A stretch of 6,346 nucleotides of DNA, taken from IMG/VR virus record IMGVR_UViG_2675903253_000005, one strand, 5' to 3'. The notes beneath the pieces are model-generated. The model was not told the origin of the DNA. It saw only the letters and a program-made list of their open reading frames with translations, and searched no databases. This DNA comes from a virus. Its lineage: Duplodnaviria > Heunggongvirae > Uroviricota > Caudoviricetes. A program made the position numbers and the translations under genes. Shown here piece after piece: positions 1,462-6,346 of the stretch (its first letter is position 1; the number at the start of each line of letters is the position of its first letter).

Positions 1462-1483
1462 NNNNNNNNNNNNNNNNNNNNNC
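1462..1483. other. 22-nt run of N (scaffold gap or masked junction)
   Basis: Literal n characters. Flanked on the left by shaft sequence (equivalent to copy C position 2541) and on the right by the stf upstream flank. Confidence 0.95.
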
Positions 1484-1504
1484 CAGGTAACACAGTGTTA
1501 TGAC

Positions 1505-1531
1505 AGCCCGCCGGTTCAGGCGGGCTTTTTT
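1505..1531 (+). terminator. Rho-independent terminator directly upstream of stf (second copy of 432..458)
   Basis: Identical hairpin agcccgcc/ggcgggct with loop ggttca and T6 tract, ending 12 nt before ATG 1543. Confidence 0.75.
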
Positions 1532-1533
1532 GT

Positions 1534-1539
1534 GGGGTG
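1534..1539 (+). promoter_or_regulatory. Putative Shine-Dalgarno element for stf copy C
   Basis: ggggtga upstream of ATG 1543; same sequence as 461..466. Confidence 0.4.
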
Positions 1540-1542
1540 AAT

Positions 1543-4500
1543 ATGGCAGTAAAGATTTCAGGTGTACTGAAAGACGGCACAGGAAAACCGGTACAGAACT
1601 GCACAATCCAGCTGAAAGCAAAACGTAACAGCACCACGGTGGTGGTGAACACGCTGGCCTCAGAAAATCCGGATGAAGCCGGGCGTTACAGCATGGACGT
1701 TGAGTACGGTCAGTACAGCGTTATTCTGTTGGTGGAAGGATTCCCGCCGTCACATGCCGGGACCATCACTGTGTATGAAGATTCCCGACCCGGTACGCTG
1801 AATGATTTTCTCGGTGCCATGACGGAGGATGATGCCCGTCCGGAGGCTCTGCGCCGTTTTGAACTGATGGTGGAAGAGGTGGCGCGTAACGCGTCCGCGG
1901 TGGCACAGAACACGGCAGCCGCGAAGAAGTCAGCCAGTGATGCCGGCACATCTGCCCGTGAGGCGGCAACCCATGCGACTGATGCTGCAGGCTCAGCGCG
2001 TGCAGCCAGCACGTCAGCCGGACAGGCCGCGACTTCGGCTCAGGAGGCGTCTTCCAGCGCAGGAACGGCATCAACAAAGGCCACTGAAGCATCAAAAAGT
2101 GCTGCCGCTGCAGAGTCCTCAAAAAGCGCGGCGGCCACCAGTGCCGGTGCGGCGAAAACGTCAGAAACGAATGCTGCAGCGTCACAAAAATCAGCAGCCA
2201 CTTCTGCATCCACTGCGACAACGAAAGCGTCAGAAGCCGCCACTTCAGCCAGAGATGCGGCGGCCTCCAAAGAGGCGGCAAAATCATCAGAAACGAACGC
2301 CTCCACAAGCGCCAGCAGTGCAGCCTCCTCGGCAACGGCGGCAGGAAATTCCGTGAAGGCGGCAAAAACGTCCGAGACGAATGCTAAGTCTTCTGAAACG
2401 GCAGCGGAACAGAGCGCCTCAGCTGCGGCAGACTCTGAGACAGCAGCTGCATCATCGGCCCGTGAGGCGTCCATTAAGGCAGAGGAGGCAGCAGTCAGTG
2501 CCACCGCCGCCGGAAAATCGGCAGAAAGCGCCGCATCATCCGCTTCAACAGCCACAACGAAGGCTGGCGAAGCCACTGAGCAGGCCACGGCAGCAGCGAG
2601 GTCAGCTTCCGCAGCGAAGACATCCGAAACGAACGCGAAAGCGTCGGAAACCCGTGCAGAATCCTCAAAAACGGCTGGCGCATCGTCCGCCAGTTCGGCG
2701 GCGTCATCGGCATCATCGGCGTCTGCTTCAAAAGATGAGGCGACCAGACAGGCGTCAGCAGCGAAGGGCAGCGCCACGACGGCATCCACGAAGGCGACAG
2801 AGGCTGCTGGTAGTGCGACGGCAGCAGCTCAGAGCAAAAGTACGGCGGAATCTGCAGCAACGCGCGCTGAGACAGCGGCAAAACGGGCAGAGGATATTGC
2901 ATCCGCCGTGGCGCTTGAGGATGCGAGCACGACGAAAAAGGGGATAGTACAGCTCAGTAGTGCGACTAACAGCACTTCCGAGTCACTGGCGGCAACGCCA
3001 AAAGCCGTTAAGGCCGCGTATGACCTGGCTAACGGGAAATACACCGCACAGGATGCAACGACAGCACAGAAAGGGATAATCCAGCTAAGCAGCGCGACCA
3101 ACAGCACGTCTGAAACGCTGGCGGCAACGCCAAAGGCAGTAAAAGCAGCCAATGACAATGCTGAGAAACGTCTGCAGAAAGATCAGAACGGTGCGGATAT
3201 CCCTGGCAAAGACACCTTTACGAAAAATATTGGTGCCTGCCGTGCCTTCGGTGGGTCAGTAAGCACAACAACAGGAAACTGGACGACTGCACAGTTTATC
3301 GAGTGGCTGGATTCTCAGGGAGCATTTAACCATCCATACTGGATGTGCAAGGGTTCCTGGTCTTATGGCAATAATAAAATCATTACTGATACTGGCTGCG
3401 GTAATATTCATCTCGCCGGAGCTGTCATTGAAGTAATGGGGATAAAGTCAGCGATGACGATCCGCATTACCACTCCGACCACATCCAGCGGTGGCGGAAC
3501 AACCAACGCCCAGTTTACCTATATTAATCACGGAACAGATTATTCACCTGGCTGGCGAAGGGACTATAACTCCAGAAATAAGCCAACGGCATCAGAGATC
3601 GGGGCGCTACCGTCAGGTGGAACAGCAGTATCATCAGTTAATCTGGCTTCAAAAGGTCGGGTAGCCGCGCTGACAGACAATACGCAGGGGGCAGCAGGTC
3701 TTGAGTTATACGAGGTGTATAACAACGGATATCCAACAGCGTATGGAAATATCATTCACCTGAAAGGGATGACAGCCGTTGGCGAAGGTGAGTTACTCAT
3801 CGGCTGGAGTGGTACAAGCGGTGCTCATGCTCCGGCATTTATTCGTTCACGACGGGATACGACCGACGCAAACTGGTCGCCGTGGGCGCAGCTTTACACC
3901 TCGGCTCATCCTCCTGCAGAGTTTTATCCAGTCGGTGCACCAATCCCGTGGCCATCAGATACCGTTCCGTCTGGTTATGCCCTGATGCAGGGGCAGACTT
4001 TTGACAAATCTGCTTACCCGAAACTTGCAGCCGCTTATCCGTCAGGCGTGATCCCTGATATGCGTGGCTGGACGATTAAGGGCAAGCCCGCCAGTGGTCG
4101 TGCCGTATTGTCTCAGGAACAGGATGGCATTAAATCGCACACCCACAGCGCCAGCGCATCCAGTACGGATTTGGGGACGAAAACCACATCGTCGTTTGAT
4201 TACGGCACTAAATCCACGAATAACACCGGGGCGCATACGCACAGTCTGAGCGGCTCTACAAGTTCAGCTGGGGCCCACCAACATAGTCAGACTGGGCCCA
4301 GAACGAATAGCGGGAGTCAACCTACTGGAATGTTTCCGGCAGGGAGTACTCAAGTTAGCGGGACTAATCAGGTTGGTATCAGTGGCTCATTAACCAGTGG
4401 CACCTCCCAATGGGTAGGTAAATCATCTTCAGAAGGAAACCATACACACTCACTGTCCGGCACAGCAGCATCTGCGGGTGCACACGCGCATACTGTCGGT

Positions 4501-4626
4501 ATTGGTGCTCATACGCACTCTGTTGCGATTGGTTCACATGGACACACCATCACCGTTAACGCTGCTGGTAACGCGGAAAACACCGTCAAAAACATCGCAT
4601 TTAACTATATTGTGAGGCTCGCATAA
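1543..4626 (+). CDS. stf: Side tail fibre protein Stf, full length (1027 codons): N-terminal tail-attachment region, Ala/Ser/Thr-rich shaft, two phage fibre repeats, receptor-binding domain, His-box (HxH) tip
   Basis: Uninterrupted ORF from ATG 1543 to TAA 4624-4626. N-terminus [20 protein letters not shown]... and C-terminus ...[29 protein letters not shown] match my recollection of lambda Stf. [23 protein letters not shown] fibre repeats are present. Seven HxH motifs lie in the C-terminal 140 residues. Confidence 0.9.
1900..2930 (+). repeat. Low-complexity Ala/Ser/Thr-rich shaft region with degenerate repeats (recurrent K(T/S)SETNA and SAAA/TSA motifs)
   Basis: The protein is dominated by A/S/T/K/E here. 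SETNA recurs at about 2161, 2287, 2371 and 2626. The GCN-rich codons create long spurious antisense ORFs. Confidence 0.7.
2938..3150 (+). repeat. Two tandem phage tail-fibre repeats within stf copy C (one 44-aa unit plus one core unit)
   Basis: [44 protein letters not shown] (2938..3069) followed by [29 protein letters not shown] (3070..3150). This is the conserved fibre-repeat motif shared by lambda Stf, P2 H and Mu S-type fibres. Confidence 0.8.
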
Positions 4627-4649
4627 TGGCATTCAGAATGAGTGAACAA
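4626..4649 (+). CDS. tfa: Tail fibre assembly protein Tfa, first 8 codons only (MAFRMSEQ), then broken at the ambiguous base 4650
   Basis: ATG 4626-4628 overlaps the stf stop (TAATG). MAFRMSEQ matches my recollection of the lambda Tfa N-terminus. After n4650 the sequence is mid-stf shaft, not tfa. Confidence 0.6.
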
Positions 4650-4650
4650 N
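4650..4650. other. Single ambiguous base (N) at the breakpoint between the tfa 5' end and mid-stf shaft sequence
   Basis: ...agtgaacaa-n-gggcagcgccacgacgg: tfa-like sequence ends at 4649, and from 4652 the sequence parallels copy C from 2767. Confidence 0.9.
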
Positions 4651-4651
4651 G

Positions 4652-6346
4652 GGCAGCGCCACGACGGCATCCACGAAGGCGACAGAGGCTGCTGGCAGTG
4701 CGGCAGCGGCAGCACAGAGCAAAAGTACGGCGGAATCCGCGGCAACGCGCGCCGAGACAGCAGCAAAACGGGCAGAGGATATTGCATCCGCCGTGGCGCT
4801 TGAGGATGCGAGCACGACGAAAAAGGGGATAGTACAGCTCAGTAGTGCGACTAACAGCACTTCCGAGTCACTGGCGGCAACGCCAAAAGCCGTTAAGGCC
4901 GCGTATGACCTGGCTAACGGGAAATACACCGCACAGGATGCAACGACAGCACAGAAAGGGATAGTTCAGCTCAGCAGTGCGACTAACAGCACTTCCGAGT
5001 CACAGGCGGCAACGCCAAAAGCCGTTAAGGCCGCGTATGACCTGGCTAACGGGAAATACACCGCACAGGACGCTACGACAGCACAAAAAGGAATTGTCCA
5101 GCTCAGTAGTGCAACCAACAGCACATCTGAAACGCTTGCTGCGACACCGAAAGCAGTGAAAGCAGCTAATGACAATGCGAATGGTCGGGTACCTTCTGCC
5201 CGTAAGGTGAATGGTAAGGCGCTTTCAGCGGATATAACACTGACGCCGAAAGATATTGGTACGCTTAACTCAACAACAATGTCATTCAGCGGTGGTGCTG
5301 GTTGGTTCAAATTAGCAACGGTAACCATGCCACAGGCGAGTTCTGTTGTTTCAATTACGTTGATTGGTGGCGCTGGATTTAACGTGGGGTCACCTCAACA
5401 GGCAGGTATATCTGAACTTGTTTTACGTGCAGGTAATGGTAATCCGAAGGGGATTACTGGTGCTTTATGGCAGCGCACATTGACAGGGTTTACAAATTTT
5501 GCCTGGGTTAATACATCTGGTGATACTTACGATATTTACGTTGCAATCGGAAATTATGCGACTGGTGTAAATATTCAATGGGATTATACCAGTAATGCCA
5601 GCGTGACGATTCATACGTCACCAGCATATTCTGCTAATAAGCCGGAAGGGTTAACGGACGGTACAGTTTATTCACTCTATACGCCATCAGAGCAGTTTTA
5701 TCCGCCTGGCGCACCAATCCCGTGGCCATCAGATACCGTTCCGTCTGGCTATGCCCTGATGCAGGGGCAGGCTTTTGACAAATCTGCATACCCGAAACTT
5801 GCAGCGGCTTATCCGTCAGGCGTGATCCCTGATATGCGTGGCTGGACGATTAAGGGCAAGCCCGCCAGTGGTCGTGCCGTATTGTCTCAGGAACAGGATG
5901 GCATTAAATCGCACACCCACAGCGCCAGCGCATCCAGTACGGATTTGGGGACGAAAACCACATCGTCGTTTGATTACGGCACTAAATCCACGAATAACAC
6001 TGGTGCGCATACCCATAGTTTAAGTGGCAGCACGAATGCAGCTGGTAATCACAGCCATAGAGATGGCCGTCGATTTAACCCCAGTGTTTTTAAAGATACT
6101 TATCAATATGGTTATACAAGCTCAGGTCAAAATACCTGGGGTGTACAAGGCTCAGTAGGTATGTCTACGGGGTGGTTAGCGAATACCAGTATAGATGGTA
6201 ATCATAGCCATTCACTGTCCGGCACAGCAGCATCTGCAGGTGCACACGCGCATACTGTCGGTATTGGTGCTCATACGCACTCCGTTGCGATTGGTTCACA
6301 TGGACACACCATCACCGTTAACGCTGCTGGTAACGCGGAAAACACC
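4652..6346 (+). CDS. Stf-like side tail fibre, 3' portion of a distinct allele (copy D): shaft end, three fibre repeats, alternative receptor-binding domain, His-box tip with alternative insert; partial at both ends
   Basis: Frame-2 open reading from 4652 to the window end with no stop. The first ~170 nt parallel copy C 2767..2937. Repeats [15 protein letters not shown]... occur three times. Region 5708..6031 is near-identical to copy C 3934..4257, and 6212..6346 to 4450..4584. Confidence 0.85.
4823..5167 (+). repeat. Three tandem phage tail-fibre repeats in copy D (two 44-aa units plus one core unit)
   Basis: Units begin at K codons 4823, 4955 and 5087. Sequences are [88 protein letters not shown] and [29 protein letters not shown]. 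Confidence 0.8.

Follow-up and report, generated by a model that had tools for sequence, protein, structure and literature searches.

HxH motifs in the tips of two Escherichia coli prophage side tail fibres align with the needle stem of bacteriophage T4 gp37

A well-known tail fibre tip with HxH motifs is the needle of bacteriophage T4 gp37, which carries seven coordinated irons along its length, ferrous at all seven sites (PMC6957217). Among its iron-binding residues, H929 and H931 are essential, since alanine substitution of either abolished plaque formation (PMC6957217). The tip subdomain of the same protein, residues 932–959, is an insertion in the stem and forms the distal pole (PMC6957217). 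The side tail fibre of lambda (Stf), which binds OmpC, resembles the gp37 tip in both sequence and structure (PMC12617516), and the conservation of HxH motifs in lambda has been noted earlier (PMC11705849). Its contact with OmpC accelerates adsorption. Single HxH sites, proposed or shown to bind iron, are described from the tail spikes P2 gpV, Mu gp45 and Sf14 gp47 (PMC11821841), and putative HxH iron sites have been described in marine phage fibres in the context of the “Ferrojan horse” (PMC11705849). Both the iron-stabilised needle of the gp37 type and its occurrence in lambda Stf and related prophage fibres are already established, as is the exchange of tip cassettes. For the comparison that follows, the subdomain boundaries of T4 gp37 were adopted from PMC6957217, and its iron geometry was taken from secondary sources (PMC6957217, PMC11705849).

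The window analysed here is the whole of a 6,346-bp draft contig, in which four stf fragments (A–D) are joined by Ns at position 409, positions 1462–1482 and position 4650. All features described below lie on the plus strand. Copy C (1537..4626, stop included) is, by its open reading frame and Pfam domains, a complete side tail fibre gene of the lambda Stf type, encoding 1029 amino acids. Its N-terminal phage_tail_N domain (PF08400, E 1.4e-71) is followed, upstream of the needle, by two Phage_fiber_2 repeats (PF03406) and then by a Collar domain. In 636 complete E. coli genomes, genes bearing the annotation prophage tail fibre share about 96% of its DNA sequence, and the PHROGs assignments point to tail fiber families (phrog_295, E 5e-133). 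The gene for the tail fibre assembly chaperone, tfa, starts immediately downstream (4626..4649, MAFRMSEQ), with an ATG that overlaps the stf stop codon (TAATG), and is interrupted by the N at 4650. A tail fiber assembly protein is also annotated right after stf in complete genomes and in phages including lambda and PhiR26_1. While J and lom are absent from the window, the copy C tip is found in a plain J-lom-stf-tfa module in the complete genome of E. coli BH100N. Copy D (4652..6346) is the 3' fragment of a second stf gene, an open frame of 565 codons truncated at both ends. It contains three Phage_fiber_2 repeats (PF03406), Collar and Phage_fiber domains, with the N-terminus missing, and runs to the end of the window without its last 13 residues.

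An earlier note on this DNA had listed seven HxH motifs in each of the two tips, and translation returned them with exactly the identities and coordinates given there. In frame 1, copy C reads HTH (4138–4146), HTH (4234–4242), HQH (4276–4284), HTH (4441–4449), HAH (4483–4491), HTH (4510–4518) and HGH (4537–4545), the first three motifs corresponding to residues 868/870, 900/902 and 914/916 of the protein. In frame 2, copy D reads HTH (5912–5920), HTH (6008–6016), HSH (6050–6058), HSH (6203–6211), HAH (6245–6253), HTH (6272–6280) and HGH (6299–6307). Such a series is far from what composition alone produces: when the residues of the C-terminal 200 amino acids of copy C or 170 amino acids of copy D were shuffled 20,000 times, seven motifs were never reached, the mean HxH count being 0.9–1.1 and the maximum 5–6. 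The motifs account for all of the histidines in each tip (14 of 14 in copy C, 14 of 14 in copy D), and none of the eight histidines of copy C outside the tip belongs to an HxH motif.

The earlier note had named a lack of detectable homology to gp37-type tips as grounds for refuting its reading, and such homology is clearly present. A phmmer search against the PDB matched the T4 gp37 tip (2XGF) at E 9.1e-84 for copy C and 1.7e-74 for copy D, and the match spans collar, stem and C-terminus (copy C query 75–308 against chain 28–242). T4 residues 785–1026 likewise contain 14 histidines, which are exactly those of seven HxH motifs. In a MAFFT alignment, all seven motifs of copy C, of copy D and of the Stf of Escherichia phage PhiR26_1 share columns with those of T4 (H883/885, 915/917, 929/931, 966/968, 980/982, 989/991 and 998/1000), while lambda Stf has eight. 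The spacing between successive motifs is 32, 14, x, 14, 9 and 9 in T4, copy C and copy D, where x is 37 in T4, 55 in copy C and 51 in copy D.

The T4 subdomains can be traced along both copies. In copy C, the N-terminal half of the collar (3922..4134; residues 796–866, equivalent to T4 811–881) is covered by Collar (PF07484, E 1.2e-12, above its cutoff) and is identical to T4 at 59 of 71 positions. It is followed by the ascending half of the stem with HxH 1–3 (4135..4284), in which 40 of 50 residues are shared with T4 882–931. A hypervariable tip subdomain of 46 amino acids, presumed to be the receptor-binding head, occupies 4285..4422 and agrees with T4 at only 9 of its 46 positions and with copy D at 14. 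The descending half of the stem with HxH 4–7 (4423..4572) shares 33 of 50 residues with T4 960–1009 and matches Phage_fiber (PF03335), a 14-residue His repeat, at 35 bits against a cutoff of 20 and in five matched stretches. The C-terminal half of the collar closes the protein with 17 amino acids (4573..4623), of which 16 are identical to T4 1010–1026. The Collar domain is thus split by the inserted stem, with PF07484 on its N-terminal side and the T4-like 17 residues at the C-terminus. Alignment of the subdomains in copy D places the ascending half with HxH 1–3 at 5909..6058 (40/50 identical to T4), a 42-residue tip subdomain of a common allele at 6059..6184, and the descending half with HxH 4–7 at 6185..6334 (35/50 identical to T4).

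The equal number of motifs in the two copies, which the earlier note had taken as conservation in spite of a swapped insert, holds as a count (seven against seven) but not as an independent signal of conservation. Because the flanks of copies C and D are near-identical and the differences are confined to a cassette with motifs 2 and 4 at its borders, an equal count is to be expected. HxH 1, 5, 6 and 7 sit in the flank common to both copies, and HxH 2–4 lie at the edges of the diverged cassette or inside it. The argument is weakened further by the variability of the count across the family: seven motifs are found in 152 of 206 complete tips, and the range extends from 5 to 10.

Seven is therefore the usual rather than a fixed number, and motifs are gained and lost as matched units on both halves of the needle. 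In a survey that took in the best 150 of 1,783 representatives with E ≤ 1e-3, the rule that the ascending half matches the descending half in units was obeyed by 204 of the 206 complete tips, with two violations. This matching on both halves fits the expectation for a needle that runs up and back. As a tentative generalization, rather less likely than not, the gp37/Stf needle may work as a stack of adjustable length, with iron layers gained or lost only as pairs of matched units, giving 5 to 10 metal sites. Under such a rule, a His-free ascending unit of 10 residues (SFDYGTKxTx) would always be paired with a descending unit of nine (IGAHxHxVx), and the 14-residue HxH units that flank the tip would be equal in number on its two sides. 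Lambda Stf carries as extras one 10-residue SFDYGTKTTG unit in the ascending half and one 9-residue IGAHQHPVV unit in the descending half. If true, the rule would account for the eight motifs of lambda as against seven in T4, copy C and copy D, and, if it is also undescribed, it would make it easy to design fibre tips with a chosen length.

Taken together, the stretches 4138–4545 and 5912–6307 very probably encode the stem of the C-terminal, receptor-binding needle in a lambda-Stf-type side tail fibre carried by a lambdoid prophage of E. coli. The module is homologous to the distal tip of T4 gp37. The earlier proposal of an ion-stabilised gp37-type needle bearing a variable specificity element is strongly supported by this homology, namely by the 2XGF match and the 14 histidines in register, and no observation contradicts it. 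By homology with T4 and from the literature on it, three chains would intertwine, each running from the collar up the stem (HxH 1–3) to an apical head, down again (HxH 4–7) and back to the collar, with the hypervariable insert of 42–46 residues predicted to form the head. At each HxH layer, six imidazoles contributed by the three chains would hold a single metal ion at the threefold axis. The metal is probably iron as in T4, and seven such ions may keep the thin, Gly/Ser-rich fibre rigid. Host specificity would reside in the apical head, the insert being the presumed receptor-binding element, and trimer assembly is expected to require the downstream Tfa chaperone. Single-chain AlphaFold2 models had low confidence, with a mean pLDDT of 45.8 when 40 close relatives were supplied and of 60.6 with 80 more diverse relatives, the tip staying at or below 50. 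In a Foldseek search of the PDB with the better of these models, 2xgf_A was the sole significant match (E 2e-17). Since the model superposes poorly on that chain (TM 0.32–0.34, rmsd 14 Å), the fold search tells little more than the sequence comparison does.

The alternative that survives best concerns the nature of the ion: the same fold and the same HxH triads could hold a metal other than iron, either zinc or whichever divalent ion is available. The short tail fibre of T4, gp12, binds zinc through an HxH triad. The collar region of the tips described here has further matches among structures of short tail fibres (9cuy, E 2.4e-08; 1ocy and 5lye in the fold search), and the sequence does not discriminate between metals. 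Nevertheless, a non-iron metal is considered unlikely, given that the closest solved homologue, which is about 80% identical in the ascending stem and in which all ligands are kept, is ferrous at its seven sites (PMC6957217), and that the HxH sites of P2 and Mu-type needles are described as iron-binding (PMC11821841).

Sliding identity between the two copies stays at 100% until about position 4225, drops to 30–60% between about 4235 and 4430, and returns to 90–100% from about 4445. The swapped cassette of copy C can thus be delimited at the DNA level to 4227..4449, starting just ahead of HxH 2 and closing with HxH 4, and on either side of it the two copies are 97–100% identical, including a run of about 180 nt without a difference. 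The earlier note had pictured specificity loops displayed between the His layers; instead, the swapped insert is by homology one apical tip subdomain, set between motifs 3 and 4. The divergence of copies C and D from each other and from T4 is confined to this segment. The slot after motif 3 takes up a dozen or so unrelated inserts in 108 of the 109 close relatives with a complete tip. The head would move between prophages as a cassette whose DNA boundaries lie in the conserved flanks of the His motifs. Among 5,426 complete E. coli genomes, the copy C cassette occurs in 25 and the copy D cassette in 1,144. The copy C insert is 100% identical in the prophage fibres P0001–P0003, P0001 matching the 233-amino-acid query at 100%, and near-identical forms of the copy D insert are found in P0022–P0047, with P0038 identical, and in the PhiR26_1 Stf.

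Such boundaries could be read in another way, in which HxH motifs are kept mainly as DNA “His boxes” for tip-swapping by homologous recombination and not for a structural metal role, an idea reportedly put forward for T4 gp37 by Tétart and colleagues in 1996. The term “His box” itself was not found in a literature search. Divergence between copies C and D does begin just before HxH 2 and stop exactly at HxH 4, the many inserts all occupy one slot, and a 15-nt repeat (GGxGCxCATACGCAC) encodes two of the motifs. However, the conservation is at the protein level, as both histidines persist even where the residue between them and the codons change. Motifs 1, 5, 6 and 7 do not vary in relatives with identities as low as 55%. 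The DNA repeats are also too short and too few to account for the pattern: between 4100 and 4626, only pairs of 12–15 nt were found as direct repeats, which identifies the His motifs as a protein-level repeat and not as a DNA tandem array. Furthermore, the substitutions H929A and H931A are lethal in T4 (PMC6957217). A recombination role would in any case complement metal binding and not replace it, and as the main reason for the motifs it is even less probable than a change of metal; the metal-stabilised needle remains the preferred reading.

Least credible of all is a true two-tip locus in one prophage, for instance a phase-variable or invertible switch like Mu Gin (S/S'), P1 Cin or e14 Pin with the equal count reflecting a shared scaffold, because, even though two different tips stand on one 6.3-kb record with the first eight tfa codons between them, Ns separate the fragments, the join at 4650 leads from tfa codon 8 directly to an internal position in another stf gene, fragments A, B and D are each 87–95% identical to a stretch of copy C, which is what a scaffolder would give on chaining paralogous prophage genes, the copy C tip has its plain module in a complete genome while stf-type loci number a median of 3 and up to 16 per E. 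coli genome, both tips are on the plus strand, and the window holds no recombinase ORF and only imperfect inverted repeats of 17–21 nt, chance pairs on the strength of which the invertible switch was rejected. The adjacency of copies C and D is an assembly product, as this draft contig strings together four stf fragments with Ns between them, and the two alleles of the earlier note do not make up a two-allele locus. The contig is a scaffolding chimera and calls for caution against any reading of this kind.

As a fibre gene of an E. coli prophage, this is an ordinary case rather than a new one, since its HxH motifs belong to the well-known tip type of gp37 and lambda Stf. Public E. coli genomes already contain both tip alleles, under the annotation tail fibre protein. 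The value of the analysis lies in annotation and engineering: the boundaries of collar, stem and tip and the cassette junctions are now fixed for both alleles, and these junctions are natural splice points for chimeric Stf fibres that retarget lambda-based delivery particles.

Compared with known systems, the two tips would resemble P2 gpV, Mu gp45, Sf14 gp47 and the marine fibres in having an HxH triad on the trimer axis, proposed or shown in those proteins to bind iron and to stiffen the fibre or spike. Unlike copies C and D, these proteins have one site or another number and spacing of sites, and no homology was detected between the C and D tips and the P2, Mu and Sf14 spikes or the marine HxH fibres, whose sequences are unrelated. 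At the other extreme, there is essentially no difference from the E. coli prophage tail fibres P0001–P0120 and the PhiR26_1 Stf (PV340555). In the latter, a copy-C-like region ahead of the collar is joined to a tip of the copy D type, and the HxH motifs number seven. As the alleles are the same as in these public relatives, the window adds no new variant. The likeness to (Ur-)lambda Stf comprises the N-terminal domain, the Ala/Ser-rich shaft, the Phage_fiber_2 repeats, the collar and needle and the same C-terminal ending, as well as the J-lom-stf-tfa order and the overlap of tfa with the stf stop codon; besides its eighth motif, lambda Stf differs in a 45-residue insert and in its mid-fibre region. 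The C and D inserts in turn differ from those of both lambda and T4. With T4 gp37 (2XGF; D10 collar, D11 stem and tip), the tips share collar, stem and C-terminus at 66–94% identity by subdomain, all 14 liganding histidines and a variable tip between motifs 3 and 4. They depart from it in a tip subdomain of 46 (copy C) or 42 (copy D) residues against 28 in T4, 1.5–1.6 times as long and about 20% identical, and in the gene downstream, which is a lambda-type tfa where T4 has gene 38. Finally, in contrast to the T4 gp37 shaft, the module is mounted here on a siphovirus-type lambda Stf shaft of phage_tail_N and Phage_fiber_2 repeats.

The 3′ end of the lambda-type side tail fiber (stf) gene in the fragment designated copy C (4138–4545) encodes seven His-x-His (HxH) motifs, as does its counterpart in the second fragment with a tip, copy D (5912–6307). 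Translation confirmed these counts at the exact positions reported in the earlier note. In both copies, all 14 tip histidines are located inside HxH motifs, and none of the remaining eight histidines of copy C belongs to such a motif. Upon 20,000 shuffles of the last 170–200 residues, the mean HxH count was about one and seven was never reached. When scanned alone, both tips score above the cutoff for the 14-residue Phage_fiber repeat (PF03335; five matched stretches), which is the His unit itself.

The proposal of a needle of the T4 gp37 type was borne out by homology. A search of all PDB sequences matched both the C tip (E = 9.1e-84) and the D tip (E = 1.7e-74) to 2XGF, the crystal structure of the gp37 receptor-binding tip. 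In a MAFFT alignment of C, D, T4 gp37, lambda Stf, and the Stf of phage PhiR26_1, the seven HxH columns of T4 (H883/885, 915/917, 929/931, 966/968, 980/982, 989/991, and 998/1000) coincide with the seven of C and D, and T4 residues 785–1026 contain no other histidines. The spacing 32, 14, x, 14, 9, 9 is common to T4, C, and D, with x = 37, 55, and 51, respectively. According to the published T4 boundaries (collar 811–881 and 1010–1026, stem 882–931 and 960–1009, tip 932–959; PMC6957217), copy C is identical to T4 at 59 of 71 positions in the N-terminal collar, 40 of 50 in the ascending stem, 33 of 50 in the descending stem, and 16 of 17 in the C-terminal collar, but at only 9 of 46 in the tip.

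In DNA, the two copies are 97–100% identical over approximately 3935–4225, with about 180 nt free of any difference. Identity then drops to 30–60% in a stretch that opens shortly before motif 2 and closes with motif 4, beyond which it returns to 97–100%. The equal number of motifs despite the swapped insert, emphasized in the earlier note, does not constitute independent evidence, since it follows from this cassette structure. Moreover, what varies is a single continuous stretch at the apex, which does not agree with specificity loops displayed between the His layers. Both alleles are already present in public databases. The C insert is found at 100% identity in three database relatives (P0001–P0003), and the C cassette (4243–4440) in 25 of 5,426 complete E. 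coli genomes, 24 of them at ≥99% identity. The D cassette (6017–6202) occurs in 1,144 of the same 5,426 genomes, making it about 45-fold commoner, and also in PhiR26_1. In the Stf of this phage (PV340555, L003 778–3855), a copy-D-type tip insert accompanies a copy-C-like sequence ahead of the collar, a case from nature of tip cassettes being exchanged between these alleles. In E. coli BH100N (NZ_CP025703, L005 7746–11195), the sitABCD iron/manganese uptake operon directly follows the prophage carrying the C tip; this is probably just a prophage boundary or cargo.

A second, unrelated cassette is located mid-fiber, at 3162–3919 in C (about 255 aa) and 5179–5693 in D (174 aa). The two segments are unrelated in DNA with conserved flanks, and both are assigned to tail fiber families by PHROGs; that of copy C has a weak, below-cutoff likeness to the T4 gp34 trimerization domain (18.4 bits versus a cutoff of 27). 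By Pfam, copy C comprises phage_tail_N, two 41-residue Phage_fiber_2 repeats (PF03406; 2766–3161), and Collar, while copy D comprises three such repeats (4651–5178) and Collar; the alleles thus differ in shaft repeat number as well.

The position of the cassette boundaries agrees with the idea that HxH motifs are kept purely as DNA-level "His box" recombination sites. However, it is the protein sequence that is conserved, with motifs 1, 5, 6, and 7 unchanged in relatives as little as 55% identical; a recombination role would thus add to metal binding rather than replace it. For metal binding itself, T4 provides the model. Its needle holds seven coordinated iron atoms along its length, drawn as ferrous ions, and includes the iron-binding H929 and H931, at either of which alanine abolishes plaque formation (PMC6957217). 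The tip subdomain is a stem insertion that makes the distal pole and is the probable site of LPS and OmpC binding (PMC6957217). Another paper summarizes the T4 structure as iron bound by HxH pairs and presents an octahedral site in the fiber that it modeled (PMC11705849). By homology to the gp37 tip, 4138–4545 would encode both halves of the stem. Motifs 1–3 would lie on the ascending half, the 46-residue head (4285–4422) at the needle apex, and motifs 4–7 on the descending half, with one putative metal site per motif built from three chains, as in the close homologue. A metal other than iron, such as the Zn of T4 gp12, is disfavored because iron is the metal reported for the nearest homologue, even though sequence cannot discriminate between metals. 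Single-chain AF2 models reached a pLDDT of 45.8 when built from 40 relatives and of 60.6 when built from a more diverse set of 80 (collar 70–85, parts of the stem 67–76, tip ≤50). The sole significant Foldseek match in the PDB was 2xgf_A (E 2e-17), with a TM of 0.32–0.34 and an rmsd of 14 Å, a result that is uninformative for an obligate intertwined trimer.

Of 109 close relatives whose tip is complete, all but four have seven motifs (105 tips); the count is eight in two of the four (lambda type) and six in the other two. The relatives carry about a dozen unrelated inserts, always placed after motif 3 except in P0064, whose motif 3 is mutated. In a wider set of 94 complete tips from a 50%-identity representative library, 5 (18 tips), 6 (22), 7 (44), 8 (9), and 10 motifs (1) were counted, so seven is the usual rather than a fixed number. 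The spacings are 32, X, 9, 9 for five motifs; 42, X, 9, 9, 9 for six; 32, 14, X, 14, 9, 9 or 52, X, 9, 9, 9, 9 for seven; 42, 14, X, 14, 9, 9, 9 or 22, 14, 14, X, 14, 14, 9 for eight; and 62, 14, X, 14, 9, 9, 9, 9, 9 for ten. Each added 10-residue, His-free SFDYGTKxTx unit before the insert is accompanied by one added 9-residue IGAHxHxVx unit after it, and 14-residue HxH units are equally numerous on either side. Such matching is to be expected of an up-and-back needle, whose halves need to be of equal length. In the window, the stretches to compare are 4135–4284 and 4423–4572. Both rules hold in 204 of 206 complete tips, although these are not independent and the real weight is that of about seven distinct architectures, all obeying the rule. 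The two exceptions, P0064 and P0069, are single His substitutions (HTY and NTH) in standard seven-motif tips. Prophage decay or sequencing error may account for them; should these tips be functional, they would offer a natural test of whether each iron site is needed.

The gene order in the window is not real. The window is the entire draft contig CXFG01000234.1 (assembly GCA_001250555.1; 6,346 bp), which non-ACGT characters at 409, 1462–1482, and 4650 divide into four pieces, every one a lambda-type stf fragment, with A, B, and D 87–95% identical to stretches of copy C. Fragment A (1–408) matches C 2106–2513 at 87% identity, and fragment B (410–1461) matches C 1483–2534 at 94.7%. Fragment C (1483–4649) holds a complete 1029-aa ORF (1537–4626) and the first eight tfa codons. 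In fragment D (4651–6346), which covers the 3′ portion of a further stf gene, the frame stays open from 4652 until the contig runs out. B and C both begin at the same position, 54 nt before the stf gene. Across 4650, tfa codon 8 passes directly into the middle of a fiber gene; E. coli genomes have a median of three stf-type loci (maximum 16), and in a complete genome the C tip belongs to a plain tail module ordered J–lom–stf–tfa. The adjacency of C and D is thus a product of scaffolding, and the contig is a chimera of paralogous prophage genes. An invertible two-tip locus was rejected in view of the N gaps, the paralogous fragments, the draft status, and the plain module elsewhere, with no meaningful inverted repeats in the window and no recombinase gene among its ORFs. 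The many ORFs of 100–319 aa that overlap the Ala/Ser/Thr-rich shaft region in several frames on both strands (30–2950) are not genes; they arise from coding sequence that is GC-rich, repetitive, and of low complexity.

The stop codon of stf and the start codon of tfa overlap (TAATG, 4624–4628), and the annotated coordinates in lambda and PhiR26_1 likewise share one base, which suggests translational coupling of the fiber and its assembly chaperone. Lambda Stf, which binds OmpC, resembles the gp37 tip in sequence and structure, and no atomic structure of the Stf tip exists (PMC12617516). The eighth motif of lambda Stf is explained by the matched-unit rule, both extra units being visible in the alignment. 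HxH motifs have been stated to be conserved in coliphage lambda (PMC11705849). The interpretation in the earlier note is correct in substance: the HxH module is a textbook module already recognized in lambda-type fibers, to which the matched-unit rule for needle length adds what may be the only mildly new item.
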